A stretch of DNA of 64,000 nt from a bacterium. GTDB taxonomy: Bacteria; SAR324; JACQKK01. The notes below the pieces were generated by a model. That model saw nothing but the letters and a program-made list of their open reading frames with translations. It made no database searches and was not told where the DNA came from. Where the stretch lies: assembly GCA_965240465.1 (NCBI GenBank), contig OZ251219.1, forward strand, positions 1,206,681-1,270,680. Reading direction: 5' to 3'. The position numbers were made by a program, and so were the translations under genes. Of this stretch, positions 450 to 63,316 are shown piece by piece. Each line of letters opens with the position of its first letter. Position 1 is the first letter of the stretch.

Positions 450-514
450 AAATAAATCTCGCAAATAAATCTCGCAAATAAATCTCGCAAAGAAATCCCG
501 CAAATAAATCCCGC
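450..514. repeat. tandem repeat, 13-bp unit aaataaatctcgc x5
   Basis: ctcgc/cccgc recurs at 458, 471, 484, 497 and 510 (period 13). Intergenic. Confidence 0.9.
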
Positions 515-548
515 AGAGTAATTCTCAGCGGGATGACTTCATATTTTT

Positions 549-1157
549 TTAGTAATTCCCTCCACTTCTTCCTCTTCTCTCTCCATCCTGTTCACCCTCA
601 AGGCCGCCTTTTTCGCTTAACACTTTGTCTAGCTCCTGTTGTTTTTCTGGAGGCAGGAGGATGTATAGATCTTTTAGGGCTAGAGTACTCTCGTTGAATT
701 TTTGTAATCGGGATTGTAATACTTGGAGTTTCAGGGAGAATTTTTCAGGGGCATCAGTCGTGGTTCTCATTCGTTGACAGAGAGACTCATTTGGTTGAAA
801 TGCCAAGCTCAATTTTTCGCTAAAATTGCGAAAGGCTTTTTCTTGATCTTTGCCCTCAACTTGGAGTAGCTCTGACAATTTCCTTATTTTATTTTGACCT
901 CTGACGGTAAACGCTACAGAACAGGTTCCATAAGGAAATACTAAGAAATCCTTCTTGTAATTGTTACCATCAAGACGCTTATCAAAGCTGCGTTTCTTAT
1001 CAAAGCTGCGTTTCTTATCAAAGCTGTGTTTCTTATCATCGCCACGATTTGCAAATGCAGAGGTCAGAAAAAAGGTGATAAATACCGCAATGATAATTTG
1101 AACATAACCTTTAGAAAAGAATTTACGGATGCTATCCGATAAAGATGAACTAGCCAT
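549..1157 (-). CDS. hypothetical secreted or membrane-anchored protein with KKRSFD repeats
   Basis: 202-aa ORF with an N-terminal hydrophobic segment (VQIIIAVFITFFLTSAFA). An 18-bp unit cttatcaaagctgcgttt x3 at 978-1031 encodes the KKRSFD repeats. The C-terminal LPPEKQQEL is faintly Spy/CpxP-like. Confidence 0.5.
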   Translation of the reverse strand: MASSSLSDSIRKFFSKGYVQIIIAVFITFFLTSAFANRGDDKKHSFDKKRSFDKKRSFDKRLDGNNYKKDFLVFPYGTCSVAFTVRGQNKIRKLSELLQVEGKDQEKAFRNFSEKLSLAFQPNESLCQRMRTTTDAPEKFSLKLQVLQSRLQKFNESTLALKDLYILLPPEKQQELDKVLSEKGGLEGEQDGERRGRSGGNY

Positions 1158-1220
1158 GATGGATTCCTTTTATTGATATTACTAAAAAACAAACATATAA
1201 ACTGCGATTACACGCAACAG

Positions 1221-1293
1221 TGGAGACGAGGAGAATCGAACTCCCGACCTCGGCATTGCGAACGCCGTGCTCTCCCAACTGAGCTACGTCCCC
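1221..1293 (-). tRNA. tRNA-Ala (anticodon CGC)
   Basis: The reverse complement folds as a cloverleaf: GGGGACG/TA/GCTC-AGTTGGGA-GAGC/A/CGGCG-TTCGCAA-TGCCG/AGGTC/GGGAG-TTCGATT-CTCCT/CGTCTCC/A. The G3:U70 alanine identity pair is present. CCA is not encoded. Confidence 0.93.
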
Positions 1294-1319
1294 AGTATGT
1301 CCCTAGGTCTGAATGCGAG

Positions 1320-1346
1320 GCTATACCAATAAATAATAAAAAGCAA
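1320..1346 (-). promoter_or_regulatory. possible extended -10 promoter for tRNA-Ala
   Basis: Minus strand reads TTGCTT (1346-1341), a 15-nt spacer ending in TGG, then TATAGC (1325-1320), about 27 nt upstream of the tRNA 5' end. Confidence 0.25.
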
Positions 1347-1527
1347 GGGGGGTAGGAAATTTTATTAGGTAGTTATCAGGTGGTGGTGGGGGGGGTATTA
1401 AGTGTGGATTAAGGAGGTAAGGGTTTAGAGTACCTAATGTATCTTAAATATAGTATGGTGGATGCCTTAATTACCTCAAGACGGTTTATTGGGGAGGTGA
1501 TTTAGATATTTTGTTTTGGGTATTTTT

Positions 1528-3915: not shown

Positions 3916-3970
3916 AAAACAACCCATCCCTCACCTCACCCTCACCTCACCCCCCATCCCCCCTGAGAAC

Positions 3971-4690: not shown

Positions 4691-6580
4691 CTACACTTCA
4701 TCAACCTGCTCAGATCCATTAGCACCCGAGACATCAGTTTTTTTATAAGTTTCAATATTTGTTTTAGGCGGTAGTTTTTCCTTAGCTGCTGGTTTATTTT
4801 TTGTTTCACCAAATATTATTTTAATTTCTCTAATAATATTTTCTTTGCTTTTAGCCAACCCTTCAGGATCAGACATTAATGTTTCTATATCTGGATAAGA
4901 TGCTAATTCTATAATAAAACTATTAACGACACCTATATCAATATTTTTACTACAACCTTGAAGATTACTAAAATGAGGATCATTTTTTATTAGGTATGTA
5001 ACCTCATCTTTATCAAATATCTGTTCTATTTTTTTCCCATGTTTCAAATGATTAACTTGAACATTACATTCAGGATCCTTTGAGATATTATCACCAGAAT
5101 CATTCCCTGCGTTGTCGTCATCTAGCAAGCAATATACTTTTTCTTTAGGACAAAAAAATGAAGATATGAAAGATTCCATACTTGTAGTACCAGTCATGGG
5201 TATTATCCCAAAATCTTCTCCACTATCAACAGTGGATAAAGCATAATAATCTGTTATTCCCTCAACAACAACTATCTTATCTTTTGTAAAAGCCTCTTCA
5301 AGTAAAGAAGGTACAGAACCTAAAGCATCTCTTATTGGCTGAAAAGCCTCATCTTTCCCTTTTTTATGTTCTAGCGAGTGAGTTAATTTTATATTACTAT
5401 CATCTTTTATGTCTCTATGACATGTCATTGTTCTTGATAGAAATGCTTTTTGTAATAAATGTTGATAGTGAGTGGTATATACTACAAAATTTTTCTTTGC
5501 TAATTCTTTTAGAATCTTACCTAAGGCTACTTGCGAAGAAGCATGTAAATAACAACCTGGTTCATCTAATAAATAAATAACACCATTCTTATTTTTCCTA
5601 TAAGAGAAGGTTTTGATAATGAGGTTAAAGAACCATAAAAAACCTCTACTTCTTTGATCAAGATCAAAATCACTACTTTTTTTATTAATAATCTCTTTTT
5701 TATTAACAGTCTTTTTTTCCTCAACAGTCTCTACAATTCCAATATTAATCTCACCATTTTCACGAGATAATTCAATTTCTAATTTACTTTTAGACGAAAC
5801 ATCCTCAATCTTTTGTAAGTGATCCCATTCTTCTCTTAATTCATTGTTAAAATTAGTAGCTATGGTACGTAGTTGTTTCTTACCTATATTCATAATATTA
5901 CTACCAAAACTTTCAAGTATTCTCTTAAATGTCTGGAATGAATAATCGTTATAACCTTTATTGTTCTCTTTAGGAATTCCTATAGGACTACTTATCTTAT
6001 CTACATGATAATCGTAATAAACCATACGAGGAAGTCTTCTGATAACACTTTTATAGAAATTTATATCAAGATCATTTTCACTGAATGATTTAAATTCACC
6101 TATTTTAAATTTATATTCAGGTTTTTTATCATTTCCAATAGTTCTTGTAATTTCAATGGTATTATTTTTAGGTATCGCTTCACGGAAATTATCTACTGCA
6201 TCTGTCCAGCTACTATTAAAGCTACCAATATCATTATCAACATCTTCAAAAGTATATTCATGATCTTCATCATCTGGTACTTTATAGTTTAATCTTAAAA
6301 AAACATCCTTTAAATCTTCTTTTGTGCAAGAAATCTCTGCACATATGATTGCTTCCTCCCTCTCATCATAGTTATAGCGGTTAATAATATTTGTGAGGTG
6401 TTTATACCTTACATCATCATCATCATTTCTATAATCAAAAGCCAACATAGCTTGCAGTATGGTCGTTTTACCGCATTCATTTATGCCGATGATGGGAACA
6501 GCACCATTTTCACCTAATTTAACTTCTAAATCTTCAGATATTGCTTTGTATTTTCTAATGATGAATTTTTTGTAATGCAT
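4691..6580 (-). CDS. OLD-family nuclease (ABC/AAA-type ATPase + Toprim domain)
   Basis: 629 aa. Walker A IIGINECGKTTILQAM, Walker B/signature region VIYLLDEPGCYLHASSQ, Toprim IVVVEGITDYYAL plus the DxD-like CLLDDDNAGN. The gene is visibly AT-rich: spot counts give about 28-30% G+C against about 50% in the flanks. Confidence 0.85.
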   Translation of the reverse strand: MHYKKFIIRKYKAISEDLEVKLGENGAVPIIGINECGKTTILQAMLAFDYRNDDDDVRYKHLTNIINRYNYDEREEAIICAEISCTKEDLKDVFLRLNYKVPDDEDHEYTFEDVDNDIGSFNSSWTDAVDNFREAIPKNNTIEITRTIGNDKKPEYKFKIGEFKSFSENDLDINFYKSVIRRLPRMVYYDYHVDKISSPIGIPKENNKGYNDYSFQTFKRILESFGSNIMNIGKKQLRTIATNFNNELREEWDHLQKIEDVSSKSKLEIELSRENGEINIGIVETVEEKKTVNKKEIINKKSSDFDLDQRSRGFLWFFNLIIKTFSYRKNKNGVIYLLDEPGCYLHASSQVALGKILKELAKKNFVVYTTHYQHLLQKAFLSRTMTCHRDIKDDSNIKLTHSLEHKKGKDEAFQPIRDALGSVPSLLEEAFTKDKIVVVEGITDYYALSTVDSGEDFGIIPMTGTTSMESFISSFFCPKEKVYCLLDDDNAGNDSGDNISKDPECNVQVNHLKHGKKIEQIFDKDEVTYLIKNDPHFSNLQGCSKNIDIGVVNSFIIELASYPDIETLMSDPEGLAKSKENIIREIKIIFGETKNKPAAKEKLPPKTNIETYKKTDVSGANGSEQVDEV

Positions 6581-6659: not shown

Positions 6660-8519
6660 TTATTTAGGTTCTTTCCAAGCCCCGTGCGTTTTAATTAGTT
6701 CTACTAGACGAGTTACAGCTTGCTCTGCGGGTACGCCTTTTTCCACGCATTGCTGCCCCTTATAGAGATTGATTTTCCCAGGGGCACCGCCTACATAACC
6801 GAAGTCGGCATCAGCCATTTCGCCTGGTCCGTTGACGATACATCCCATGATTCCTATTTTCAATCCTTTGAGATGTGCGGTTTTGGCTTTGATGCTGGCG
6901 GTGGTTAGTTGGAGGTCAAAGAGGGTTCTGCCGCAGGAGGGGCAAGAGATGTAATCGGTTTGGAAGGTTTTTAGTCTGGCGGCTTGCATGAGGGTTTGAC
7001 AGAATACGGATTCGGGGCTTTGGGGATTATCGTTGGGACAGATGATTGCGTCCAAGTAGCCGTCAACGGCGAGGGCACCGACTTCCACTGCGGTTTGGAT
7101 GGAGGTATCTTTGGGGGCGAGTTGAGGCAATCGGGCTGCGATGAGCCAATCTAGCCCGAGTTCTTGGAGGTAGAGGATGAGACGGCGAGCGGGTTGTAGG
7201 CAGTAGGGAGCATCCAGTACGAGCATACCTCTGTGGGGTTGATGTTTTAGGTTTTCTAGTAGGTAGGGGAGGTTTTGCCAGTCATCGGGTGAGATGAGCA
7301 GACAGAGGGGGTAGTTGAGAGAGGCGAGTTCGGGTGCGAGGGAGAAGGGGTATAGTCGCGGTAGTGGTGGTTTGGCGAGGAGTGGGGAGGGAGATTGTAA
7401 GCTAGTGCAGTTTGCGATGTGTGCGTCAAAGACCTCTTGTTTGTGGAAGGAAGGGAGTGAGAAGTGGGTTGGCGAGGCGGATGTTTGTGAGGCGGATGTT
7501 TGTGAGGAGGATGTTTGTGAGGAGGATGTTTGTGCGAGCAATGCGACTGGGTTTTGGTAGCCGAGGGATAGTTTTCCTAGTTGTATGGAGCGAGTTTTTC
7601 GTCTTTGGAAGGTTGTTGGTGGGAGCCATGGTACATTTTTCCAGTGGGGTCCTTGTGAGACGCTGTGGACGGCTTGGATGATGGCATTAGCGACGGGGAT
7701 TTCGTTTTCAGAGGGTTCGGTGAGTGATACTCGGATGGTGTCTCCGAGTCCATCGGCTAGGAGGGTTCCGATACCTAGTGCGGATTTACATCGTGCTTGG
7801 AGTCCGTCTCCGGCTTCTGTTACGCCGAGGTGTAGTGGGAAGTCCATATTTTTGGCGATCATATCTTTTGCGAGTAGTCGGTATGCGGCCACGGCGACCA
7901 AGGGATTGGAGGATTTCATTGAGACGATGACGGATTTGAAGTTATTTTTTTGGCAGATGAGGAGGTATTCCATAGCACATTGTACCATTCCCTTTGGAGT
8001 GTCTCCCCAGCGGTTGAGGATGCGGTCAGAGAGCGAGCCGTGGTTGACTCCGATTCTCAAGGCGCGTTGGGATTGTTGTAGTTTTTCTAGGAGAGGTTGG
8101 AAGGTTATTTGGACGCGTTGGAGTTCTTCTTTATATTGGGAGTTGGTATATTCTCGCAGTTGGAAGCGTTTTTGGTCTACGAAGTTCCCTGGGTTGATAC
8201 GTACTTTTTCCACCCATTGGGTGCAGTTTAGTGCTAGTGCGGGGTTGAAGTGAATATCGGCAGCTATGGGCATGGTTATGCCGTTCATTTTTTTGCGAAT
8301 GAGGGGCAATGCTTTTAGGTCTCGCCTAGTGGGAATTGTAATTCGCACCAGTTGACAGCCCGCGGTTTGTAGCCGTTGCATTTCCGCGATGACTTGGGAG
8401 ACATCGGTAGTGGGGCTGGTCAGCATGGATTGCACGCAGATAGGAGCGTTTCCTCCGATGACCAGATCTCCTACCTTAACCTCTCTGGATGCCCGACGAC
8501 ATACCGCCAAAGAACGCAT
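6660..8519 (-). CDS. ispG: 4-hydroxy-3-methylbut-2-en-1-yl diphosphate synthase, long form with inserted domain
   Basis: GGNAPICVQSM, ADIHF, INPGN, SCPSCGRT, MGCIVNGPGE. A large insertion separates the TIM-barrel and 4Fe-4S domains. The ORF extends to ATG 8579, but ATG 8519 has AGGA 7 nt upstream and aligns better with the E. coli N-terminus. Confidence 0.9.
   Translation of the reverse strand: MRSLAVCRRASREVKVGDLVIGGNAPICVQSMLTSPTTDVSQVIAEMQRLQTAGCQLVRITIPTRRDLKALPLIRKKMNGITMPIAADIHFNPALALNCTQWVEKVRINPGNFVDQKRFQLREYTNSQYKEELQRVQITFQPLLEKLQQSQRALRIGVNHGSLSDRILNRWGDTPKGMVQCAMEYLLICQKNNFKSVIVSMKSSNPLVAVAAYRLLAKDMIAKNMDFPLHLGVTEAGDGLQARCKSALGIGTLLADGLGDTIRVSLTEPSENEIPVANAIIQAVHSVSQGPHWKNVPWLPPTTFQRRKTRSIQLGKLSLGYQNPVALLAQTSSSQTSSSQTSASQTSASPTHFSLPSFHKQEVFDAHIANCTSLQSPSPLLAKPPLPRLYPFSLAPELASLNYPLCLLISPDDWQNLPYLLENLKHQPHRGMLVLDAPYCLQPARRLILYLQELGLDWLIAARLPQLAPKDTSIQTAVEVGALAVDGYLDAIICPNDNPQSPESVFCQTLMQAARLKTFQTDYISCPSCGRTLFDLQLTTASIKAKTAHLKGLKIGIMGCIVNGPGEMADADFGYVGGAPGKINLYKGQQCVEKGVPAEQAVTRLVELIKTHGAWKEPK
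7474..7533. repeat. in-frame tandem repeat inside ispG, 15-bp unit gaggcggatgtttgt x4
   Basis: Copies at 7474, 7489, 7504 and 7519. They encode SSQTS/SASQT repeats within the IspG insertion domain. Confidence 0.9.
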
Positions 8520-8619
8520 AAATAATCCTAAGTGTGTCAAGTTTGTGTTGAAGAGTACTAGTTTATCTTGTAATGCCATTTTATAGCTAGCAGATGCAAG
8601 TTTATGGTTCAGCGGTTTT

Positions 8620-8667
8620 GCGAATCTTTTGGCGAATCTTTTTGCGAATCTTTTTGCAGATCTTTTT
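8620..8667. repeat. tandem repeat, 12-bp unit gcgaatcttttt x4
   Basis: Lies in the divergent intergenic region between ispG and the LolA-like gene. Confidence 0.85.
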
Positions 8668-8760
8668 GTGATGTTTCAGCTGGTTTAGTATTAGATTTAG
8701 GACTACATATTGCATTACAAACGAGCGTTAACTGCCTTTAATAGTAGAGAGTTTGAGGTT

Positions 8761-9572: not shown

Positions 9573-11693
9573 ATGAAGAATCTTTGTTTGAGTTTGTGGA
9601 TGGCAGTGGTACTGGCTGTTGTAGTGGGCAGTGCGATGCCTATTTACGCTCAGCCATTGCCTAAACCGCCAGAGGATGAAGAAGACGAATTGCTGGAAGA
9701 TAAGGCATCAAAACCAGCTGAGGAGCCAAAGCCCGTAGAGCTTGAGCCAGAGGTTGAGTTTCCCGTAGAGCCAGACGATAAATTAGATAAAGCTGGGTTA
9801 GGCTCTGAAGTTGAATTGGAGCCTGAGATTGAATTGGAGCCTGAGATTGAATTTGATCCTGAAGCTGGGTTAGGTCCTGAGATTGAGTTGGAGTCTGAGA
9901 TTGAATTGGATTTAGAATATGAGTTAGGTCCCGAGGTTGAATTGAAGCCTCCTTTGCTACCTGAAGAAATAGAGGCACTGATTGATGAGAGTGAGAAGGA
10001 GTACGAGGATAAGAGTAAAGGTTCTAAAGATAAGGTTGAGGTTAAGAAAGGTGAAGATACTGAGGATGAGAGTGAGGAAGATAAAGATGCTGATGGGTTA
10101 GATTTTTCGGTTCAACCAGAGGTTTTATTTATTGAGCCGCCGGGTTCTGGTTTTCTTGATAGTCCTAATCAGGAGGGATTTATTGGTAACGAGTTAGAAT
10201 CTTATTCATTGTTTGAGCAGGAATTTTTTCAAGATACTAGGGTTGAGATTGAGCCACTAGGTAATAAAGCGATAAAGAAAGCAGAGAAGAAGTTGTTTAA
10301 GAGGCTTGCCTTTTATGGAGGGAGTGGCAAGAAGAATTATTTTATCAATGGCAGATTTGGGGTTAGTTCTGTGTCTGGGGAGGCTACTCGGAGATTGCTT
10401 TACGCTAAGCTTGGAGGGGATTATAGGGCAGGGATTTTTCGGTTTGGCTTAGGGGGTAGTTATACCCTCCAGCACATTGAGTACATAGAAGAATTAAGAC
10501 CGATTTTTACCGAGAACGATGTTTATAGTGGTTATGCAGGCAGTAAGCGGGTTTTGGATAAGGAAACAGCTGTTCCAGAGGGTACGTATTTTGGAATTTA
10601 TTTGGATAAGTTAAGCCTCAGCGGCGGAGTGCAGACCATTGTTTGGGGGCAACTTGAAGGTTATTCTCCAGTAGATTCATTACTGCCAGAACGCAGTGAT
10701 GCCATCAACCCTAGCTTTAGGAAGGAAAATAACCGCCTGCCGCAGACGGTTTATCGCCTTTCCTTGTTGATGCCCCTAAAGATAAGATTTGATTTGTATC
10801 AATTTCCCAAATACGAGGTGGATGGTATCACCGAGAAAGCCTTTACCCAAGCGCGAGAGTTCAATAGCTACAATGGAGGGAAACTTGCCAGAAAAGAGGC
10901 GACTTTACCAATCAAGCCCAGTGTTCCTAGCAGGGCGGTGCGTTTGATGCTCAATCCTGTTTGGGGTAAAGTGGGATATACTTACTATCGGGGGCAAGAT
11001 AGTGCGGTGGAGGATTTCTCCAGCTTGGAGGTTGTCGCTAGGAGGGATGTATATCAAGCAGAGCCTCATCCTGGGGTTTCTGCTTTTGTGGGTCGGGGGA
11101 TTGAGGTTTCTATTAGTCGTGACAACTATGTTTTCTACCTAGAGAGAATGCAACGCAATGGTCTTTTTACTAACATTTACTGGCCTTATCCTGATTCTTC
11201 CACAGTTGAGCTAAGTGAACTGGCATTGCAACTAAGAGATTGGGTGCTAGAAAACAATGAAAAAAAGTTGTACTTGGAGCATAGCCAAGTAATCAATGCT
11301 GTCGGTATGAAGGTAAAAACAGCAGTCCAAGAGGCATCATTTGCGGTGTATACGCTGAAAGAAGAATTCCTAGCTCCCCAAGCCCAAACAGGATTTGAAA
11401 TATACAAACAACTTGATGAACAAAAACCAGTCAGTACTACTACGGTCTACTTCAAATATCAGGGATATATTGATCCCGACCGAAAAACGCTGGCTGGACT
11501 GGCAACGGGCTTGTTAGGCCCGGCTTTCGGTAATCGGGTATATGTTTCTCACAACTTCGGTGGTTTGCGTGCCGTGCTTTCCTATGAGGATCTGGAATAC
11601 ATCAACGATAGAAACATCAGCAGCTCCATTGAGTACCAGCAAAAGCAAAATACCTTCCGAGGTTCTCGCCTCACCTTGATCTACGATCTGTGA
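9573..11693 (+). CDS. secreted protein with an acidic EPEIEL repeat region; possible outer-membrane beta-barrel partner of the upstream LolA-like protein
   Basis: Signal peptide MKNLCLSLWMAVVLAVVVGSAMPIYAQP, then ~170 aa of E/D/P-rich tandem repeats (DNA ~9790-9950), then a long beta-rich region. The partner role is inferred from DUF1329/DUF1302-type pairing. Confidence 0.55.
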   Translation: MKNLCLSLWMAVVLAVVVGSAMPIYAQPLPKPPEDEEDELLEDKASKPAEEPKPVELEPEVEFPVEPDDKLDKAGLGSEVELEPEIELEPEIEFDPEAGLGPEIELESEIELDLEYELGPEVELKPPLLPEEIEALIDESEKEYEDKSKGSKDKVEVKKGEDTEDESEEDKDADGLDFSVQPEVLFIEPPGSGFLDSPNQEGFIGNELESYSLFEQEFFQDTRVEIEPLGNKAIKKAEKKLFKRLAFYGGSGKKNYFINGRFGVSSVSGEATRRLLYAKLGGDYRAGIFRFGLGGSYTLQHIEYIEELRPIFTENDVYSGYAGSKRVLDKETAVPEGTYFGIYLDKLSLSGGVQTIVWGQLEGYSPVDSLLPERSDAINPSFRKENNRLPQTVYRLSLLMPLKIRFDLYQFPKYEVDGITEKAFTQAREFNSYNGGKLARKEATLPIKPSVPSRAVRLMLNPVWGKVGYTYYRGQDSAVEDFSSLEVVARRDVYQAEPHPGVSAFVGRGIEVSISRDNYVFYLERMQRNGLFTNIYWPYPDSSTVELSELALQLRDWVLENNEKKLYLEHSQVINAVGMKVKTAVQEASFAVYTLKEEFLAPQAQTGFEIYKQLDEQKPVSTTTVYFKYQGYIDPDRKTLAGLATGLLGPAFGNRVYVSHNFGGLRAVLSYEDLEYINDRNISSSIEYQQKQNTFRGSRLTLIYDL

Positions 11694-11726: not shown

Positions 11727-11786
11727 CTACTAGACACGCTGCTACTAGACACGCTGCTACTAGACACGCTGCTACTAGACACGCTG
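11727..11786. repeat. tandem repeat, 15-bp unit ctactagacacgctg x4
   Basis: Perfect copies at 11727, 11742, 11757 and 11772. Intergenic. Confidence 0.9.
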
Positions 11787-11912
11787 CTAAACGCTACTGG
11801 GCTTGTCCCCCCCGAGCTATCCTGCCCCACCTGCTCCCCTCCTTTGCTGCTCTCCTCCTTTGCTCCTCCCCTCGCCATGCCCCTCCTGCCCTTAGCAGAA
11901 AGCTGCTGTTTA

Positions 11913-11962
11913 GCAATCACAATGAGACCGCAATGAGACCGCAATGAGATCGCAATGAGACT
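11913..11962. repeat. tandem repeat, 11-bp unit gcaatgagacc x~4.5
   Basis: aatgaga recurs at 11921, 11932, 11943 and 11954. Confidence 0.85.
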
Positions 11963-12526: not shown

Positions 12527-12637
12527 GCAAGCTGATAAGCCCGCAAGCTGATAGCCCGCAAGCTGATAAGCCCGCAAGCTGATAAGCCCGCAAGCTGATA
12601 AGCCCGCAAGCTGATAAGCCCGCAAGCTGATAAGCCG
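12527..12637. repeat. tandem repeat, 16-bp unit gcaagctgataagccc x7
   Basis: Copies start at 12527; one copy carries a 1-nt deletion. Intergenic. Confidence 0.9.
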
Positions 12638-14241: not shown

Positions 14242-14388
14242 CAGACCTTATCCTTGCTAATCCTTGTCCTTGCTAATTGATGATAAATAGCTCGCCGCAA
14301 CATCACACACCCCAGCGATGCTTACACATATTAGCCACTCAATTCTAGTGAAAGCACTCCTTAGCTGGCAAGTAGACCCGAACTTGTT

Positions 14389-17013: not shown

Positions 17014-17415
17014 TTAATTTTTTGTTTGCTTGCGGCGGGAAATGGCTTTCTTCTTGAGGTAGGCTGCTTGTAGGATATTATTTTCGGTTTGGAAGTCCTT
17101 TTGAGTGAGTTTGCCTATTAGGTGATCGTTTTTCAAGTAATTTAATTCTTCCAGCAGGAGATTGGCATCGGAGGTGGCATCAGGGTCGGCATCGGGGTCG
17201 GCATCGGGGTCGGCATCGGAGGTGGCATCGGGGAAGGCATCGGGATCGGGGTTGGAGGTGGCATCGGCATCGGAGAAGGCATCAGGGTCGGCATCAGGGT
17301 CGGCATCAGGAGAGGAAATACCCTTTTGCCAAGGATGATTAGGTCTTAGCAAGGGACGACTAATCCAAAAGGTACACAAGACTAAGAATGTCATTCCAAA
17401 CCACAGCATTGGCAC
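17014..17415 (-). CDS. CcmI-like cytochrome c biogenesis protein (N-terminal TM module) with a DADP repeat
   Basis: Immediately downstream of ccmH. N-terminal TM then RPLLR, as in the CcmI N-terminus. 12-bp repeats at ~17165-17320 encode DADPDA. Confidence 0.4.
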   Translation of the reverse strand: MPMLWFGMTFLVLCTFWISRPLLRPNHPWQKGISSPDADPDADPDAFSDADATSNPDPDAFPDATSDADPDADPDADPDATSDANLLLEELNYLKNDHLIGKLTQKDFQTENNILQAAYLKKKAISRRKQTKN

Positions 17416-20587: not shown

Positions 20588-20652
20588 CTAACGGATTCTG
20601 CTAATGGATTCTGCTAACGGATTTCGCTAATGGATTCTGCTAATGGATTTCG
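20588..20652. repeat. tandem repeat, 13-bp unit ctaayggattyyg x5
   Basis: Lies between ccmE and ccmF. Copies at 20588, 20601, 20614, 20627 and 20640. Confidence 0.9.
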
Positions 20653-20659
20653 CTAATAA

Positions 20660-26021: not shown

Positions 26022-26054
26022 TTGCCATCAGATATTTTTATCCTTCATTTTTGC

Positions 26055-41361: not shown

Positions 41362-41422
41362 AATACTGAAGAGAAGCCAAGTAAAGAGCCAAGTAAAGAG
41401 CCATGTAAAGCCAGAGAAATCA

Positions 41423-43505: not shown

Positions 43506-43512
43506 CAAAAGG

Positions 43513-46833: not shown

Positions 46834-47013
46834 TGCTGAGAGTGCTTGCTGAGAGTGCTTGCTGAGAGTGCTTGCTGGGATGCTCTTGCTGAGAGTGCTT
46901 GCTGGGATGCTCTTGCTGAGAGTGCTTGCTGGGATGCTCTTGCTGAGAGTGCTTGCTGGGATGCTCTTGCTGAGAGTGCTTGCTGGGAGCTCTTGCTGGG
47001 ATGCTCTTGCTGA
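46834..47013. repeat. tandem repeat, 13/14-bp subunits (tgctgagagtgct / tgctgggatgctct) forming a 27-bp higher-order unit
   Basis: Starts 22 nt after the lysS stop. About 13 subunits. Confidence 0.9.
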
Positions 47014-47037
47014 GACACCCTGCCTCTCAGATAGTGC

Positions 47038-47797: not shown

Positions 47798-47931
47798 AGC
47801 CCCTACTCTCCCCTTTTTCTTCCAGCCCCCTACTCTCCCCTTTTTCTTCCAGCCCCCTACTCTCCCCTTTTTCTTCCAGCCCCCTACTCTCCCCTTTTTC
47901 TTCCAGCCCCTACTCTCCCCCTTTTTCTTCC
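47798..47931. repeat. tandem repeat, 26/27-bp unit agccccctactctcccctttttcttcc x5
   Basis: Lies between the 206-aa gene and the pnp stop. Confidence 0.9.
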
Positions 47932-47938
47932 AGCCAGC

Positions 47939-51510: not shown

Positions 51511-52512
51511 TTACTCCACCAGCACGCAGCGAGGTTGGATTTGCAATCCAGCTGATGTTTGAATGGCAGTTCCGATAGCGAGGAGGCGTCCTTGTTGATT
51601 GAGAGCTTTGAGGGGTTTGTCAATGGTGAGGTTATCAGGGGTTGTAAAGGGTGTCAGCCTGCCTTGTAGTAGGTGCGGGAGGTTTTCGGGGTTAATTTCC
51701 ACTGGGGCGTGGTTGGTGAGGAAGGGGACGGGGTTGAGGATATACTGGCAGGGTGGGGATTTTAGCAGTTCGCTGAGGTTGACGGCTTGTTTGATATTCC
51801 ATGACGGGCTATCGGAGCCTATTGCGGTTCGTTTAAGGGAGGTGAGATGAGCACCTACTTTTAGAGAGGTGCCGATGTCGTTAGCGAGCGAGCGGATGTA
51901 AGTTCCAGCACTACAGAGGACATCCAGATGCAGGTAGGGGAGTTTGATTTTTTGTACTTCTAGGAGATGGAAGCATACTTTTCGGGTGCGGTGATGTGCT
52001 ATTTCTCCTTTTCTGGCGAGTTTATAAGCGGGGATGCCATTTTTTTTCACGGCAGAGAAGTCAGGGGTTTGCTGATTGTGTTCGCCGTGCCAAGCGAGGA
52101 CTGCGTCGTTTATTTGCTGAGGAGTGAGGTGATCAGGCGATTTACAGGAAAGCATGGTGCCTTCAGCGTCTAGGGTATCGGTTTGTTCGCCTAGTTTTAT
52201 GATGGCTTGGTATCGTTTTGGGAGTTTTTCAAACAGGTGGATGAGTCGGGTGGCATTGCCGATAAACATAACTAGGACTCCCGTAGCTAGGGGGTCGAGC
52301 GTGCCTAAGTAGCCGACCCTGAAACGAGTTTTTGTTTGGCGGATTTTTTTATCGTGGTAGAAGTGCCTTTTCACTTTTTGAAGTACCTGATTAGAAGATA
52401 ATCCTGGGGGTTTATCTAGCACCAGTATGCCCGATGGGACATTTGTGGTGGTGTCAGCAGAATTTGCGACATCAGTTTCAGTTGCAGGTGTGGTGAGCAG
52501 AATTTGCGACAT
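51511..52512 (-). CDS. truB: tRNA pseudouridine(55) synthase
   Basis: GILVLDKPPGLSSNQVL, and GYLGTLDPLATGVL containing the catalytic Asp. Confidence 0.88.
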   Translation of the reverse strand: MSQILLTTPATETDVANSADTTTNVPSGILVLDKPPGLSSNQVLQKVKRHFYHDKKIRQTKTRFRVGYLGTLDPLATGVLVMFIGNATRLIHLFEKLPKRYQAIIKLGEQTDTLDAEGTMLSCKSPDHLTPQQINDAVLAWHGEHNQQTPDFSAVKKNGIPAYKLARKGEIAHHRTRKVCFHLLEVQKIKLPYLHLDVLCSAGTYIRSLANDIGTSLKVGAHLTSLKRTAIGSDSPSWNIKQAVNLSELLKSPPCQYILNPVPFLTNHAPVEINPENLPHLLQGRLTPFTTPDNLTIDKPLKALNQQGRLLAIGTAIQTSAGLQIQPRCVLVE

Positions 52513-52535
52513 CAGTTTCAGTTGCAGGTGTGGTG
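52456..52535. repeat. perfect 40-bp tandem duplication spanning the truB start codon
   Basis: agcagaatttgcgacatcagtttcagttgcaggtgtggtg occurs at 52456-52495 and 52496-52535. Confidence 0.95.
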
Positions 52536-52914: not shown

Positions 52915-52942
52915 TATCAGTCTAGAAAGCGACATTGAAAAA

Positions 52943-53124
52943 GGAGCACTGAGAAAGGAGCACTGAGAAAGGAGCACTGAGAAAGGAGCACTGAGAAAGG
53001 AGCACTGAGAAAGGAGCACTGAGAAAGGAGCACTGAGAAAGGAGCACTGAGAAAGGAGCACTGAGAAAGGAGCACTGAGAAAGGAGCACTGAGAAAGGAG
53101 CACTGAGAAAGGAACACTGAGAAA
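52943..53124. repeat. tandem repeat, 14-bp unit ggagcactgagaaa x13
   Basis: Copies every 14 bp from 52943 to 53111. The last copy reads ggaacactgagaaa. Lies in the infB-rbfA intercistronic region. Confidence 0.95.
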
Positions 53125-53156
53125 GGAATATTTATTGGCTTATGTGGTAGCGAGAA

Positions 53157-55760: not shown

Positions 55761-57512
55761 TTAGTCTGTGGCGGGGACTTCTTCAGTTTTTTTTGCGGTG
55801 CCTTCTTCAGTGCCTTCTTTAGAGCTTTGTGCAGGGATTTCTTCAGTGCCTTCTTTAGAGCTTTGTGCAGGGATTTCTTCAGTGCCTTCTTTAGAGCTTT
55901 GTGCAGGGATTTCTTCAGTGCCTTCTTCAGTGCCTTCTTCAGTGCTTTGTGCGGGGATTTCTTCAGTGCCTTCTTTAGAGCTTTGAGCAGGGATTTCTTC
56001 AGTGCCTTCTTTAGAGCTTTGAGCAGGGATTTCTTCAGTGCCTTCTTTAGAGCTTTGTGCAGGGATTTCTTCAGTGCCTTCTTTAGAGCTTTGTGCAGGG
56101 ATTTCTTCAGTGCCTTCTTCAGTGCCTTCTTCAGTGCTTTTTGCAGGGATTTCTTCAGTGCCTTCTTCAGTGCCTTCTTTAGAGCTCTGTGCGGTGCCTT
56201 CTTTAGTGCCTTCTTTAGTGCCTTCTTTAGAGCTTTGTGCAGGGATTTCTTCAGTGCCTTCTTTAGAGCTTTGTGCGGGGATTTCTTCAGTGCCTTCTTT
56301 AGAGCTTTTTGCAGGGATTTCTTCAGTGCCTTTTTTAGAGCTTTGTGCAGTCTGCTCTGGATCCTGGGATTTATTTAGGTTATTTTTATTATCTTTTTGA
56401 TTAAGTTCTGATTGTTTATCCAGTTCGGCTTGTGAAGCGAGCAGGCGTTCTCTGATTTGTGCTTCTATGCTGAGGGTTTGGTCTACGGTGGAGGAGATGT
56501 TTATTTTTTTATTGAGCAGTTTGGAAGCCAAGCGAACATTTTGTCCTTGCCGACCAATGGCGAGCGATAGTTGTTCTGGTTCTACCTGAACATCTATTTC
56601 TTCACTTTCCTCGTTGAATTTCACTCGGCTCAGTTCAGCAGGTGCGAGGGCGTTGGCTAGGTAGATAAGGGGATCTTCGCTGTATTGGACGATGTCTATT
56701 TTTTCGCCTCGCAGTTCATTTACGATTGATTGTACTCGGGAGCCTCTCATACCCACGCAGGCTCCTACGGGATCGACATCGGAGTCATTGGAACGTACGG
56801 CTACTTTGGCACGTTTGCCGGGTTCTCGTGCGGCTAGGACTATTTCCACCACGTTGTCATAGATTTCGGGTACTTCAGTTTCAAACAGCTTCATCAGCAG
56901 ACTGGGATGGGATCGCGAAACCACTAATTGAGCTGGTTCTTTGGGATCGTTGCGTACTTCCAGCAAAATCACGCGGATGTGGTCTCCGCTGGAGTATCTT
57001 TCGGTAGGAATTTGTTCTCTGGGGTATAGAATGGCTTCTGTCTGGTTGAAATTAATATAAGTGCGACCGCGTTCACTACGGCTAATTACCCCATTGATTA
57101 TATCCCCTATCCGATTCTTAAATTTTTCGTAGATGAATTCGCGTTCGGCTTCACGCACCTTTTGAAATACCATGTGACGAGCAGTTTGGGCGATTACTTT
57201 GCGTAGATCTTCGTTATCTATTTCGTATTCCACCACATCTCCCAGTTGAGCGGAGTCGTCTAGGGATTTGGCTTCTTGCAGAGAAAGATTATTATCGGGG
57301 TCATCGGATTCTTCTACTACGGTTTTGTAGTGAAAGACCTCCAAGGAGCCAGTATTTTGGTTAATGCGAGTTTCTAGATCGTTATACTGGGAAAACTTGC
57401 GTTTGGCAGCCAGGGTGATGGCTTCTTGAACGACCTGTATCAGACGATCTTTGTTAATTCCCTTAGCGTAGGAAATATCACTAAGGGCTTTAAGCAGTTC
57501 TTCTTGTTGCAT
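55761..57512 (-). CDS. nusA: transcription termination/antitermination factor NusA with a repeat-built C-terminal tail
   Basis: N-terminal domain, S1 domain and two KH domains (GACVGMRGSRVQ, AIGRQGQNVRLAS). The C-terminal ~190 aa are GTEEIPAQSSKE-type repeats. Confidence 0.93.
   Translation of the reverse strand: MQQEELLKALSDISYAKGINKDRLIQVVQEAITLAAKRKFSQYNDLETRINQNTGSLEVFHYKTVVEESDDPDNNLSLQEAKSLDDSAQLGDVVEYEIDNEDLRKVIAQTARHMVFQKVREAEREFIYEKFKNRIGDIINGVISRSERGRTYINFNQTEAILYPREQIPTERYSSGDHIRVILLEVRNDPKEPAQLVVSRSHPSLLMKLFETEVPEIYDNVVEIVLAAREPGKRAKVAVRSNDSDVDPVGACVGMRGSRVQSIVNELRGEKIDIVQYSEDPLIYLANALAPAELSRVKFNEESEEIDVQVEPEQLSLAIGRQGQNVRLASKLLNKKINISSTVDQTLSIEAQIRERLLASQAELDKQSELNQKDNKNNLNKSQDPEQTAQSSKKGTEEIPAKSSKEGTEEIPAQSSKEGTEEIPAQSSKEGTKEGTKEGTAQSSKEGTEEGTEEIPAKSTEEGTEEGTEEIPAQSSKEGTEEIPAQSSKEGTEEIPAQSSKEGTEEIPAQSSKEGTEEIPAQSTEEGTEEGTEEIPAQSSKEGTEEIPAQSSKEGTEEIPAQSSKEGTEEGTAKKTEEVPATD
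55790..56350. repeat. in-frame tandem repeat, 36-bp unit (with 9-bp sub-repeats) x~15 at the nusA 3' end
   Basis: ttcttcagtgccttctttagagctttgtgcagggat and variants. Boundaries are approximate. Confidence 0.9.
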
Positions 57513-57587: not shown

Positions 57588-57653
57588 GGACTAATGACAC
57601 GTCCTAATGATATGTCCTATATTACACGGACTAATGACACGGACTAATGACAC
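57588..57653. repeat. tandem repeat, 13-bp unit ggactaatgacac x5 (two copies degenerate)
   Basis: Lies between the rimP stop and the nusA start. Confidence 0.8.
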
Positions 57654-57654
57654 G

Positions 57655-58233
57655 TTAGTGATAGTCCAACTTGGGTTCTAAGTGGGCAGTATGTACCTTT
57701 TCTAGAGGGATGATTAGGGTTTCTGTGGTTACTCTCAGGTGAAGCAGATTTTCTTGTACATTCTCAATTATTCCTGTTTGGACAGGCTGCATGGTCTTAT
57801 CACAGCCAGAATTGCGAGCCCATTCAGTGTCTAAGAATATCTTGGCTCTCTTGCCGATTGATTGCACAAAATGACCCACTTGACGCAAACGACGAAATAA
57901 TCCAGGTGAAGTGACCTCCAAACGATAACTCCCCTGCACTAAATCCTCCACATCCAAAAAACGACCAACCAGCTCACTCACCTTACTACAATCTTTCAAG
58001 CCGATTCCGTCATCTTTGTCAATCATAACGCGTACTACCGTCCTACGCGTTCTGACAAACTGCACTTCCAGCAATTGATACCCTAATCCAGCTATTGGCT
58101 CAGTCAGCAAGGTTTTGGCGGTTTCCTCCAGCGAAACCGTAGGAGCTGCTTGAGGATCACGACAATCTGAAGCAGACACAGGGGAAGAATCAGGCAGTTT
58201 TTCCATGGCAGAACTGAAAGTACTAGAAGACAT
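57655..58233 (-). CDS. rimP: ribosome maturation factor RimP
   Basis: GYQLLEVQF...RVMIDKDDGIGLKDC...YRLEVTSPGLFRRL. First gene of the nusA operon. Confidence 0.85.
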   Translation of the reverse strand: MSSSTFSSAMEKLPDSSPVSASDCRDPQAAPTVSLEETAKTLLTEPIAGLGYQLLEVQFVRTRRTVVRVMIDKDDGIGLKDCSKVSELVGRFLDVEDLVQGSYRLEVTSPGLFRRLRQVGHFVQSIGKRAKIFLDTEWARNSGCDKTMQPVQTGIIENVQENLLHLRVTTETLIIPLEKVHTAHLEPKLDYH

Positions 58234-58342
58234 CTTTTTGTTTTTATATCAGCGGACAATACAGGGTACCTTAACCCTCAGCAATATGCCCGAACTGGAA
58301 ACAATCTTTATCTTCCACCCATACCTGTAAAAAAAGAATTCT

Positions 58343-58522
58343 GCAAGCCAAAAGAGTTTGGCGAGCCAAAAGAGTTCTGCAAGCCAAAAGAATTCGGCAA
58401 GCCAAAAGAATCTGGCAAGCCAGAAGAATCTGGCAAGCCAAAAGAATCTGGCAAGCCAAAAGAATCTGGCAAGCCAAAAGAATCTGGCAAGCCAAAAGAG
58501 TTCTGCAAGCCAGAAGAATTCG
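58343..58522. repeat. tandem repeat, 18-bp unit gcaagccaaaagaatctg x10
   Basis: Copies every 18 bp from 58343 to 58505. Lies upstream of rimP. Confidence 0.95.
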
Positions 58523-58532
58523 GCAAACCCTC

Positions 58533-59261: not shown

Positions 59262-59461
59262 TATGATGGCGTCTTAACTAATTGAAACAACGGGTGAAGC
59301 AACTGGCTAATTGAAGCGAAGCAACTGGCTAATTGAAGCAATGGGCTATTGAAGCAATGGGGATGTCAAAGGCGAAATAGAACCAAGCGGAAGATGGCTA
59401 CATCAGTCAACCCTCAGTGGCTTAAGTTATTGCGATGAGCCGATGCACGGTGATATGGATG

Positions 59462-61463: not shown

Positions 61464-61639
61464 TATCAGCTCCTCAATTTGTCACACTTCGAGCTTATCG
61501 CATTCTGAGATACTTTGACAGACTAACTTCATTATAAGTTTTCAACTGCAGATTAGCAATAGCAAAGCAATATTCCAGCCATTATAGACCTCAATTTCAT
61601 ATAACAGCCAAAATAAATTAAGGTAAGGCATGCCAACGA

Positions 61640-62752
61640 CTAGTTAATCTTTTTTATGACTAGCCCCAATAAAATGCTCGCCAGCAATACCGCGCCATTT
61701 GTCCCCCAAGCTGCCACTAAGAAATGCAGTTTTTCCAATTTCCCCAACAGAAAAAATATTTCTTGTCCAAAATAAAAAAGGATCCCTATTAACAACACAA
61801 ATAGCATGTCGGTAGTTCGGATTCGCTTAGGTGAAGGGTTAACAATCATCAGTGCTAGCCATCCTAAAAGGAACGGAGCGACCATCAATGCCAATTCCTG
61901 ATGAAACCCCAGCCAGTACAAATTTGAGTTTTTCTCTTGTCGCCTATTTTGACGGATTTCTTGCCACAAACCTATCAACCCTAGGGTTTGCAAGTTGACA
62001 TATGTCTTCTCAAAGATAATGTTTAGTGCTTTTTGAGGTAAAACTATCTCTGCAGCTATCTGGGAGACCTTATCCGTCTGGCGAAGATCTGCATTATCCG
62101 TCTGGCGAAGATCTGCATTGTCGGTCTGGCGAGATATCAAAGGGGTGTAATGTTTTGCCTGCTGGGTTGTTTGCCACAGACCATCCACTTGGTACAATTC
62201 CTTAAAATGCGATATCCTAGGCGTTCTCCCAGAATTGGCGATTCCGTGCAAGACAAAGACACCTTGGGCTAGGGCTTCTTCAAACAAAATCTTGCGAACG
62301 TATATCACATCCGAGTCGTGCAACTGCCAAATATGATGGCGAACCTTATCAACCGAGCCCTGCTGCCGTGAATCCACCCAAGCACTAAGCTGATTCTGAT
62401 TCAGGACTCCTAATAAGCTCACCAATAGCAACACTGGCCACATCAGGGTATACAAACGAAACAAGCTCAACCCCGCACCTTGCATGGGATACCACTCATG
62501 AGTGCGTAAAAAAGCATTGTGCGTTAAACGCACCGCAAATAATAAGGTCAGCGGCAATAATATCTTTAGCGTCGCTGGCATAATGATTAATAAATCTCTA
62601 AGCCACTCTAGTAGCCCTTCCCATCCCGACAAAAACAAATTAAGATTATCAAAACTGTCGCCCAGCAACACCAACCCAAGTGTTACTGACAAACATAATA
62701 GCCAAAACCCAAATAGCCTCAAGGCCACATATCGCGATATTAAACTCATCAC
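61640..62752 (-). CDS. LptF/LptG (YjgP/YjgQ) family LPS export permease
   Basis: 370 aa with N-terminal ISRYVALRLFGFWLL, a central periplasmic domain and C-terminal TMs. An in-frame RQTDNADL x2 repeat is encoded at ~62075-62125. Confidence 0.7.
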   Translation of the reverse strand: MMSLISRYVALRLFGFWLLCLSVTLGLVLLGDSFDNLNLFLSGWEGLLEWLRDLLIIMPATLKILLPLTLLFAVRLTHNAFLRTHEWYPMQGAGLSLFRLYTLMWPVLLLVSLLGVLNQNQLSAWVDSRQQGSVDKVRHHIWQLHDSDVIYVRKILFEEALAQGVFVLHGIANSGRTPRISHFKELYQVDGLWQTTQQAKHYTPLISRQTDNADLRQTDNADLRQTDKVSQIAAEIVLPQKALNIIFEKTYVNLQTLGLIGLWQEIRQNRRQEKNSNLYWLGFHQELALMVAPFLLGWLALMIVNPSPKRIRTTDMLFVLLIGILFYFGQEIFFLLGKLEKLHFLVAAWGTNGAVLLASILLGLVIKKIN

Positions 62753-62920
62753 TGGGTACCTTTACATCTATGAATAATCACTTGCCCTGCCGTACATCTT
62801 CCAGCAATTGCGGTGCTGGGCAATATATTATAAAACCAGTTAGCAAAAGATTATTTTCATTCGTACTGGTATATCAAACAGATGTCCATTTTGTTGCATT
62901 TGCAATTATCATTGTTGGCT

Positions 62921-62974
62921 TGCCAGATTCTTCTGGTTTGCCAGATTCCTCTGGTTTGCCAGATTCTTCTGGCT
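62921..62974. repeat. tandem repeat, 18-bp unit tgccagattcttctggtt x3; reverse complement of the 58343-58522 satellite
   Basis: The reverse complement ggcaaaccagaagaatctggcaagcc differs at 1 of 26 positions from ggcaagccagaagaatctggcaagcc at ~58413-58438. Confidence 0.9.
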
Positions 62975-63054
62975 TGCCTCATTGTTGGCTGGCAGGCTGA
63001 TTGGGTGTATACTCGGCAAAGGTATTTTTTTGCATGAAGACTTGCAATATTGGT

Positions 63055-63153
63055 GTATAATGTCGGTGTGCAATGTCGGTGTGCAATGTCGGTGTGCAAT
63101 GTCGGTGTGCAATGTCGGTGTGCAATGTCGGTGTGCAATGTCGGTGTGCAATG
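63055..63153. repeat. tandem repeat, 13-bp unit gtgcaatgtcggt x~7.5
   Basis: Copies at 63055 (degenerate), 63068, 63081, 63094, 63107, 63120 and 63133, plus a partial copy. Confidence 0.92.
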
Positions 63154-63225
63154 TGAACGCACTTTGCTAATCATTAAATAAGATGTGAACGACATCTGCA
63201 TATATGATCCACCAGATGCTACAAT

Positions 63226-63316
63226 CATCTACCAAAGGCATCTACCAAAGGCATCTACCAAAGGCATCTACCAAAGGCATCTACCAAAGGCATCTACCAA
63301 AGGCATCTACCAAAGG
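63226..63316. repeat. tandem repeat, 13-bp unit catctaccaaagg x7
   Basis: Perfect copies from 63226 to 63304. Ends 6 nt before ATG 63323. Confidence 0.95.

Follow-up and report, generated by a model that had tools for sequence, protein, structure and literature searches.

The window studied here is a stretch of 64,000 nucleotides from the chromosome of a SAR324 bacterium (contig OZ251219.1, positions 1,206,681 to 1,270,680; coordinates below count from its first letter). We observed that its spacers and many of its genes are occupied by tandem arrays, almost each of which has a unit sequence of its own. It is likely that these arrays are variable-number tandem repeats (VNTRs) of the minisatellite class, produced by a clade-specific mutational process acting genome-wide, and that most of them are not functional elements. 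A previous interpretation of this DNA from its letters only, hereafter the sequence-only reading, had noticed the arrays; that observation is real and the phenomenon is stronger than was claimed.

Arrays were called with Tandem Repeats Finder (TRF), with a score of at least 50 as the main cut-off and overlapping rows merged; spacers and coding sequences were counted from a curated gene list, gene boundaries being based on open reading frames (ORFs). The data consist of the 64 kb of the present genome and about 94 kb from close relatives, and 80 unrelated bacterial loci (1.19 Mb), taken from a contig search with Mpl (relatives of at most 44% identity), served as background. In the window, 126 TRF rows were merged into 52 separate arrays, which corresponds to 8.1 arrays per 10 kb and 7.3% of the bases. 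The background loci have 0.98 arrays per 10 kb (maximum 3.6) and 0.54% of their bases in arrays, so that the density in the window is ~8-fold higher, and each of 20 dinucleotide-preserving shuffles of the window gave 0-1 arrays. With criteria similar to those used for the Borg elements discussed below (at least 50 nt and at least 3 units), 29 arrays remain and cover 5.7% of the window versus 0.22% of the background. All eight 8-kb bins of the window contain arrays, and both TRF and an exact-run scan show that the copies are direct, head-to-tail and abutting, without spacers between them.

The coding density of the window is 86%, and arrays occupy 32% of the intergenic bases versus 3.5% of the coding bases. 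At least one array is present in 23 of the 40 spacers of at least 50 bp, which bears out the earlier count of at least 20 spacers. All 21 intergenic arrays named at that stage were recovered by TRF with the same period and with a start within ~20 bp, and eleven further intergenic arrays were found. Among these 40 spacers, no preference for the promoter side or the terminator side was detected, arrays being present in 6/8 convergent, 5/10 divergent and 12/22 tandem (co-directional) spacers.

The length of the units differs strongly between genes and spacers. Inside coding sequences, all 20 periods are divisible by 3 (12, 15, 18, 24, 30, 36 and 42 bp; chance probability 3e-10), as expected from the proposal that the in-gene units keep the reading frame; in spacers only 9 of 31 periods are, about the one third that chance would give (Fisher p = 1.7e-7 versus coding sequences). 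The only unit touching coding sequence that is not a multiple of 3 is a perfect 40-bp duplication (2.0 copies, 52456..52535, without junction homology), which covers the stop codon of rbfA and the apparent start of truB. In-frame units are, per bp, ~3 times rarer in coding sequences than in spacers.

The commonest intergenic period is 13 bp, with 9 of 31 arrays against 1 of 117 background arrays (Fisher p = 2e-6). The claimed dominance of 13-bp units is thus a real bias, in the sense of a mode, and not a majority. Adjacent lengths also occur: units of 13 and 14 bp alternate at 46834, the array at 52924 is a 14-mer, and several arrays contain higher-order units of 26, 27 or 39 bp made of diverged 13-mers. 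No hidden 13-bp periodicity was detected in the array-free spacers of the window.

Another strain of the same species is represented in one other sample by two contigs, L081, which covers 11.6-22.7 kb of the window with 309 mismatches (2.8%) and 30 indels, and L089, which covers 35.5-50.5 kb with 244 mismatches (1.6%); the global alignment of L081 was made with MAFFT in a fast mode. We observed that the arrays lie at the same sites in both strains, have identical flanks and differ by whole units, and are therefore true variable-number repeats. About 11 of 14 arrays have changed in comparison to L081 and 5 of 8 in comparison to L089. In L081, the 11-mer at 11920 has 8.1 copies versus 3.8 in the window (+44 bp, four units), the 12-mer at 15809, located on the start codon of the glucose/sorbosone dehydrogenase (GSDH) gene, has 5.2 versus 3.2 (+24 bp, 2 x 12), the 16-mer array at 11831 is 27 bp longer and the GSDH linker array at 15574..15770 is longer by 93 and 12 bp, with the frame kept. 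Fewer copies are present in L081 for the 16-mer at 12527 (4.9 versus 6.9; -31 bp, 2 x 16), the GSDH 12-mer at 14521 (3.3 versus 4.3), the 11-mer at 21892 (2.3 versus 3.3; -11 bp) and the 12-mer at 22023 (2 versus 3). The array at 17163 in a 133-aa ORF is 30 bp shorter, the 15-mer array at 11727 is remodelled (-23 bp) and the 13-mer at 20588 is unchanged, with 5.4 copies. In L089, the complex array at 43139 is about 106 bp longer (476 versus 370 bp), the array at 46834 lacks one 13-bp unit and the array at 47800 has 78 bp more; the arrays at 36477, 38005 and 41375 are the same as in the window. In spite of these indels, the in-gene arrays remain in frame in both strains.

Some duplications are present in one strain only. 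In comparison to L089, the window alone has a perfect 42-bp duplication in a 925-aa ORF (38584-41361), called PPDK by the sequence-only reading and whose L089 counterpart carries PEP-utilizers domains, and a 15-bp duplication in an AMP-binding enzyme (36855). L089 alone has a 36-bp duplication in the same PPDK ORF, 60 bp upstream of the 42-bp one, and a 15-bp gain in an aminotransferase, and L081 alone has duplications of 12 and 22 bp. Since such new duplications are polymorphic between strains, seeding is ongoing. Moreover, because independent contigs from another sample show the same sites with identical flanks and different whole-unit copy numbers, the arrays are not an assembly artefact.

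The arrays are not restricted to this species. Two sister species were sampled, one by the contigs L082, L083, L088 and L090 (CcmF 72% identical to that of the window) and one by L087 (IF2 68% identical), as well as more distant relatives, L084, L085 and L086 (CcmF 58-60% identical). L087 has 13-14 arrays in 17 kb (13 at a score of at least 50); its in-gene arrays are all divisible by 3 (8/8) and two of its intergenic arrays are 13-mers. Its gene at the NusA position carries 8.6 copies of an 18-mer unrelated to the repeat of the NusA tail in the window. In the other sister species, L082 and L083 have 2.3-3.2 arrays per 10 kb at a score of at least 50 and 3.6-5 at a score of at least 40, and L088 and L090 have 1.3 and 0.9, close to the background, and about 2 at the lower cut-off. 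In the species of L082/L083, 4 of the 5 clearly intergenic arrays are 13-mers, and two 13-mer arrays differ between its strains (3.1 versus 2.1 and 5.4 versus 4.4 copies). The L082 spacer orthologous to the one at 26047 of the window also holds a 13-bp array, the sequence of which is unrelated. In L084, L085 and L086, TRF found no short-unit array at a score of at least 50; the sole repeats in L084 are two large duplications (92 and 196 bp). The presence of arrays in three related species and their absence from distant relatives indicate that this syndrome and its 13-bp mode are properties of a small clade, and not of one window or one species.

The units themselves look like arbitrary local sequence. 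Among the arrays of the window, 6-mer sharing revealed only chance-level overlaps and no shared motif, and no unit has a second locus or solo copies in the 64 kb at up to 1-2 mismatches, with the exception of one pair. The arrays at 58332..58526 (18 bp, 10.8 copies, quasi-palindromic GCCA(A/G)A-N4-TCTGGC) and 62916..62978 (18 bp, 3.5 copies), 4.4 kb apart, share one 18-mer in inverted orientation (89% complementary), the core of which is the inverted repeat GCCAGA-N4-TCTGGC. Since the order of the genes is unchanged in the sister species, this orientation does not stem from an inversion. The two arrays flank four genes (Rce1-like, DnaJ-HTH, ParA/Mrp and LptF/G). The earlier statement that units are locus-specific and do not belong to a dispersed REP/ERIC-type element consequently stands for all the other units, and has to be amended for this pair. 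Adenine is not enriched (26.6% in the arrays, 26.1% in the window), and neither the base composition nor the purine/pyrimidine content of the arrays differs significantly from that of matched controls (p = 0.31 and 0.11).

This pair, found at two loci in inverted orientation and able to form a hairpin like REP elements, is what one would expect of a dispersed mobile or structured element family (REP/BIME, MITE, STRR-like or degenerate CRISPR), but no other unit of the 64 kb behaves in this way, the copies follow each other without spacers and the Rfam matches amount to a tRNA only. Together with the assembly artefacts considered above, such a family is very improbable and is largely refuted. 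CRISPR arrays proper were ruled out, as the copies abut without unique spacers and no CRISPR family is found among the Rfam matches in the window.

Another possibility is that the arrays are functional cis-elements, that is to say regulatory protein-binding platforms, transcribed scaffold or regulatory RNAs, or contingency loci that tune by copy number. Several locations are suggestive. A perfect 13-mer (63226..63318, 7.2 copies, unit CATCTACCAAAGG) with AAAGG in each unit ends 6 nt before the ATG at 63325, the 12-mer at 15809 reiterates a start codon from 3 to 5 times depending on the strain, arrays lie within the operon spacers ccmE-ccmF, infB-rbfA and nusA-rimP, and the 18-mer common to two loci is an inverted repeat resembling an operator or a hairpin. 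The predicted RNA folding is far better than that of shuffled sequences at 58332 (z = -6.7), 62916 (z = -4.7) and 12527 (z = -6.05). In addition, tandem repeats are generally enriched in the intergenic DNA of prokaryotes and a regulatory role has been proposed for them (PMC12418385). However, the unit is different at almost every array, which makes a common binding factor impossible; convergent, divergent and tandem spacers are affected alike; unit sequences show no conservation between species even where the spacers are orthologous; the same process strikes the loops of housekeeping enzymes; and the in-gene arrays could never switch the frame. Most arrays, moreover, have no predicted RNA structure, the 13- and 14-mer arrays giving z values between -2 and +2.5. 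We therefore consider cis-elements an unlikely general explanation, and the suggestion of the sequence-only reading that the arrays serve generally as protein-binding platforms or contingency loci was not supported. Iterons and comparable binding platforms do not match either, given the lack of a shared motif and the occurrence of arrays whatever the type of spacer.

A further explanation would be that a reduced genome has lost mismatch repair, and the sequence-only reading had suggested a check of mutS/mutL. The genome is indeed small (a contig of 1.6 Mb here and a circular contig of 1.72 Mb in a relative), and runs of 8 or more identical bases occur ~5 times as often as in the background (24 in the window against about 5 per 64 kb, the base composition of the background being different). 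The MutS protein of E. coli recognises loops of about 4 nt or less, and units of 8-42 nt would give loops too large for it. The classical sign of mismatch-repair loss, di- to hexanucleotide microsatellites, is nearly absent, since among repeats of 2-6-nt units only one (CAT)5 was found in the 64 kb. This explanation is improbable, even more so than that by cis-elements, and the suggested mutS/mutL check suits the data poorly. The long homopolymers include a G12 at 55749-55760 and a C11 at 41332-41342, near the 3' end of the PPDK ORF. In the same region, L089 lacks 37 bp at 41294, which gives its PPDK a longer, altered C-terminus (963 versus 925 aa).

The preferred explanation, a mutational process of the clade, can be described in three steps. 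In a first step, seeding, an arbitrary local sequence would be duplicated in tandem, usually over 11-18 bp, with a mode at 13 bp and a tail up to about 42 bp, and mostly without junction homology. In a second step, which is seen between strains, arrays of at least two copies gain or lose whole units, at times several together or in registers of 26, 27 or 39 bp. The presumed mechanism is unequal sister exchange or slipped-strand mispairing independent of RecA, and such turnover would keep the copies nearly identical. Higher-order units of 26, 27, 39, 54, 56 and 79 bp, as found here, are typical of iterative slippage. In a third step, borne out by the statistics of the periods, selection allows only units divisible by 3 to persist in genes, mainly in loops, linkers and termini, and would remove most in-frame units from structured protein regions, while spacers tolerate every unit length and let arrays accumulate to a third of their DNA. 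For arrays placed on start codons or ribosome-binding regions, the copy number may alter expression as a by-product. The clade specificity, the whole-unit changes, the polymorphic one-to-two-copy duplications and the frame filter all support the earlier proposal that slippage or repeat seeding is unusually active in this lineage.

Several points weigh against this explanation. A generic slippage model predicts no clade-specific spike at exactly 13 bp. The turnover, which we roughly estimate at ~1.5 events per array per 2.8% nucleotide divergence, appears fast relative to point substitution and far slower than at classical phase-variable loci. The genome-wide prevalence is extrapolated from the 64 kb and the about 94 kb analysed. 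Individual arrays may be functional, in particular the 13-mer abutting the ATG at 63325, the start-codon repeat at 15809 and the hairpin-forming 18-mer. Finally, the homology at the junctions of two-copy duplications, measured in ~18 cases, is 0 bp in 9, 1 bp in 4, 2 bp in 1 and 3 bp in 4, a spread close to that expected from random flanks. This is not what classical slippage between pre-existing microhomologies predicts, suggesting that the seeding step may differ from the expansion step. The isolated exact duplications found in two copies at the loci of the clade measure 11, 12, 13, 15, 18, 22, 23, 24, 36, 40 and 42 bp, the commonest range being 11-13 bp.

Tentatively, one could imagine that the clade possesses a homology-independent duplication activity with a preferred length of ~13 bp, which seeds arrays over the whole chromosome. 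Such an activity might take the form of staggered nicking with subsequent fill-in, or reside in an unusual primase, replisome or flap-processing machinery. Candidate causes are defects in single-strand exonucleases or in the processing of 5' flaps, which in E. coli and yeast make tandem repeats less stable and short duplications more frequent.

Repeats are present in 16 of ~52 proteins, about 30% of those sampled, and are located at termini, linkers or loops. The residues S, E, P, T, A, K, G and D account for 78% of the repeat residues, and C and W do not occur. One of these arrays forms the C-terminal tail of NusA (55778..56351, minus strand), a 36-bp unit in 14.9 copies encoding about 15 copies of the peptide SSKEGTEEIPAQ. 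A repeat tail at NusA is thus found in two species with unrelated units, the 36-mer x 15 of the window and the 18-mer x 8.6 of L087 (9601-9752); in a third species, NusA (431 aa; L088 8021-9316) has no repeat tail. The tails seem to have arisen independently at the same end of the protein. In Mpl, an 18-bp unit in 4.9 copies (24419..24507, plus strand) encodes five copies of TKGEGG, which fill a position where two relatives show a gap.

GSDH contains four arrays, all on the minus strand. Its start codon lies inside the first (15809..15846, 12 bp x 3.2), whose unit ATGCCTAACTTG, read on the gene strand, encodes MPNL. The N-terminus of the protein consequently consists of three MPNL copies followed by repeated linkers, and we observed three in-frame ATGs in the window and five in L081 (6927-6988). 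The linkers correspond to a 30/39-bp array of 3-4 copies with the peptide PAITPAISTK (15574..15770) and to a 24-bp unit in 2.8 copies in the N-terminal linker (15501..15567). The fourth array, 12 bp x 4.3 with the peptide LRTP (14521..14572), is absent from the sister species contig L082.

The other in-gene arrays of the minus strand are found in an LTXXQ-like protein (978..1038, 18 bp x 3.4, peptide DKKRSF), an AAA_15 ATPase (5678..5718, 18 bp x 2.3), IspG (7474..7534, 15 bp x 4.1, peptide QTSSS), the 133-aa ORF following ccmH (17163..17310, 12/36 bp), which had been called CcmI-like and has no Pfam match, and a 270-aa ORF at 22691-23503 (23328..23388, 15 bp x 4.1, peptide NSTAP). This last ORF had been read as CcmA, and its syntenic counterpart in L082 matches ABC_tran. 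The AMP-binding enzyme carries the 15-bp duplication mentioned above (36855..36887, 2.2 copies) and a second 15-bp array of 2.7 copies (38005..38044), and LptF/G carries 2.6 copies of a 24-bp unit (62070..62132). On the plus strand, arrays are present in a 708-aa protein (9811..9950, 18 bp x 5.6 with a 54-bp higher order, peptide ELEPEI), at the C-terminus of a ZapB-like protein (26654..26700, 15 bp x 3.1), in a glycosyltransferase (32564..32599, an 18-bp duplication, 2.0 copies), in the VKOR protein (36477..36506, 12 bp x 2.5), in the PPDK ORF (38835..38918, the perfect 42-bp duplication, whose junction shows no homology) and in the ORF beginning at 63325, which extends beyond the end of the window (63799..63831, 15 bp x 2.2).

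The intergenic 13-mers begin with an array at 450..515 (5.1 copies, unit AAATAAATCTCGC). The ccmE-ccmF spacer holds 5.4 copies with a 26-bp higher-order unit (20588..20657), the array at 26033..26133 has 6.5 copies with a 39-bp higher-order unit (13-bp row from 26047), and the one at 30232..30300 (3.6 copies or, alternatively, a 26-bp unit; 13-bp row from 30251) ends a few bases before the ATG of guaA. A new perfect 13-bp duplication is present at 32190..32216 (2.1 copies, 1 bp of junction homology), the nusA-rimP spacer contains 5.0 copies (57590..57655), and 8.6 copies of TGCAATGTCGGTG lie at 63043..63154, upstream of the 13-mer described above that adjoins the ATG at 63325. Related lengths are found in the alternating 13- and 14-bp array (46834..47015, 27 bp x 6.5), in a 27-bp array of 5.0 copies (47800..47935) and in the 14-mer of the infB-rbfA spacer (52924..53127, 14.6 copies, 12.4 of them exact).

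Shorter intergenic units comprise an 8-mer in 13.2 copies, located in a convergent spacer and starting from the Mpl stop codon (25072..25177), and 11-mers at 3928..3952 (2.3 copies, directly past the stop codon of a UvrD-like gene), 11920..11961 (3.8) and 21892..21927 (3.3). The 12-mers are located in the divergent spacer between IspG and a LolA-like gene (8616..8668, 4.4 copies), at 22023..22058 (3.0) and at 41375..41410 (3.0). Longer units are a 15-mer in 4.2 perfect copies (11727..11789), 16-mers at 11831..11873 (2.7 copies), 12527..12636 (6.9, quasi-palindromic), 14246..14277 (a duplication, 2.0) and 30044..30076 (2.1), an 18-mer in 4.6 copies (26916..26997), a G-rich 21-mer in 2.1 copies (25223..25268), 22-mers at 29430..29478 (2.2 copies) and 59295..59361 (2.0 perfect copies, overlapped by a 16-mer x 2.6), and a 23-mer in 3.3 copies (26839..26913). 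The array at 43139..43508 is complex and hierarchical, with sub-units of 8-13 bp and higher-order units of 56 and 79 bp, and makes up 94% of the TauE-hyp133 spacer.

In its gene content, the window is an ordinary piece of chromosome with housekeeping genes: ispG, pyrD, ccmC, ccmE, ccmF, ccmG, ccmH, mpl, ppsA, guaA, lysS, pnp, truB, infB, nusA and lptF/G, with ORFs at the positions of rpsO, rbfA and rimP in the operon, and a single tRNA, the sole Rfam match. Its CcmF and IF2 genes sit on a contig of 1,599,138 bp, and the sister species includes the circular 1.72-Mb contig. The nearest named relatives in searches with CcmF, IF2 and LysS, at ~60% identity or less, are metagenome-assembled genomes labelled SAR324 cluster, Candidatus Lambdaproteobacteria or Deltaproteobacteria.

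Some neighbouring features deserve mention. A UvrD-like helicase gene (1516-3915, plus strand), with weak matches to GajB and NERD+UvrD, is convergent with the AAA_15 ATPase gene (4691-6580, minus strand), whose best PADLOC matches are AriA (PARIS) and OLD-type proteins; the pair may be a candidate defence island. The GC content of the window is lowest in this region (35.5% at 4-6 kb). A type II DNA methyltransferase is encoded at 34640-35392 on the plus strand (PADLOC MTase_II, E = 7e-82); no recognised restriction enzyme adjoins it, and an 84-aa ORF follows directly.

Other differences between genomes were also noticed. A 320-aa gene with a weak match to HK97-type Phage_capsid_2 (50443-51405, minus strand) lies between rpsO and truB. 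Its position is empty in both sister species (L087 14142-14258; L088 13686-13831), and in L089 (15389-16109) unrelated DNA replaces most of it, the synteny with the window ending shortly after. At about 90-320, L089 has an insertion of 230 bp relative to position 35628 of the window, just upstream of the VKOR gene, which is not a tandem repeat. Between the ORF read as CcmA and ccmC, a 193-aa ORF on the opposite strand (22056-22690) shows indels of 4, 4, 8 and 5 bp between strains and is called as two ORFs in L081, and the sister species has only an 86-bp spacer there. This ORF probably has no coding function or is in decay.

Among known systems, the most similar is that of the Borgs, extrachromosomal elements of Methanoperedens archaea with pervasive tandem repeats (Schoelmerich et al. 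2023, PMC9879509). Both systems have many near-perfect head-to-tail arrays in genes and in spacers. The genic units are all divisible by 3 in both, and the intergenic ones in 14-38% of cases in Borgs versus 29% here. Units are unique to a locus, with copy numbers varying within and between populations in Borgs and between strains here; the arrays are absent from related genomes; and the peptide repeats are rich in disorder-promoting residues and devoid of Cys, which in our case is a statement on residue composition only (PMC9879509). By contrast, the carrier here is a bacterial chromosome with nusA, infB, pnp, lysS, guaA, ispG and ccm, whereas Borgs are giant linear extrachromosomal elements of archaea. 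The repeats here are several-fold denser, with 5.7-7.3% of the DNA versus 0.63-0.93% in the Borgs compared, by criteria that are not identical, about 2% of Borg proteins are affected versus 16 of ~52 here, and Borg units are adenine-rich, unlike ours (PMC9879509). The 13-bp intergenic mode may be a peculiarity of the present system. Many arrays here are also imperfect or have a higher-order structure.

Bacterial VNTRs used for typing by multiple-locus VNTR analysis (Yersinia pestis, Bacillus anthracis, Coxiella, the MIRU loci of Mycobacterium) are similarly locus-specific, with conserved flanks, whole-unit differences and in-frame genic units. Typed pathogen genomes contain tens of VNTR loci per several Mb, and we know of no 13-bp preference in them. 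They are orders of magnitude sparser than the arrays described here, which reach ~8 per 10 kb and affect a third of the proteins and over half of the spacers. The contingency simple sequence repeats of Neisseria, Haemophilus and Campylobacter also change in tract length by slippage, and a few of our arrays adjoin start codons, but those repeats have units of 1-8 nt and switch the frame or the promoter spacing of surface and restriction-modification genes. By comparison, the present units measure 8-42 nt and never change the frame of the housekeeping genes that host them, and the window is essentially devoid of short microsatellites. REP/BIME, ERIC and the cyanobacterial STRR heptamers are likewise short repeats concentrated between genes, and the 18-mer at 58332/62916 resembles a REP-type hairpin, but in those families one consensus is found at hundreds of loci, whereas in the 64 kb each array has its own unit except for one pair. 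Eukaryotic minisatellites share units of 10-60 bp, concerted evolution, higher-order units and multi-unit steps; they belong to large recombining genomes, often at meiotic hotspots, unlike a 1.6-Mb bacterial chromosome of 86% coding density. In the searchable literature, beyond the Borg papers and general surveys, we found no bacterial lineage described with such a syndrome and no description of repeats in SAR324.

The tolerance of bacterial chromosomes for tandem repeats is usually considered low. Here, young arrays account for ~7% of the DNA sampled from a small genome (about 1.6 Mb) and for a third of the spacer DNA, and repeated peptides lie inside about 30% of the sampled proteins, including NusA, Mpl, IspG and the ORFs read as CcmA and PPDK. 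The system offers a natural experiment on how disordered segments arise de novo in essential enzymes. With three array-rich species and array-poor sister lineages on long or complete contigs, the mechanism that creates the repeats becomes testable by comparative genomics and by population analysis at the level of reads, and the replicated 13-bp mode and the missing junction homology are concrete mechanistic clues. The same question of mechanism stands for the Borg elements. If the clade really possesses a duplication activity of ~13 bp, this would be a bacterial counterpart of the mechanism that makes the Borg repeats, and it could be traced by comparing array-rich with array-poor sister genomes.

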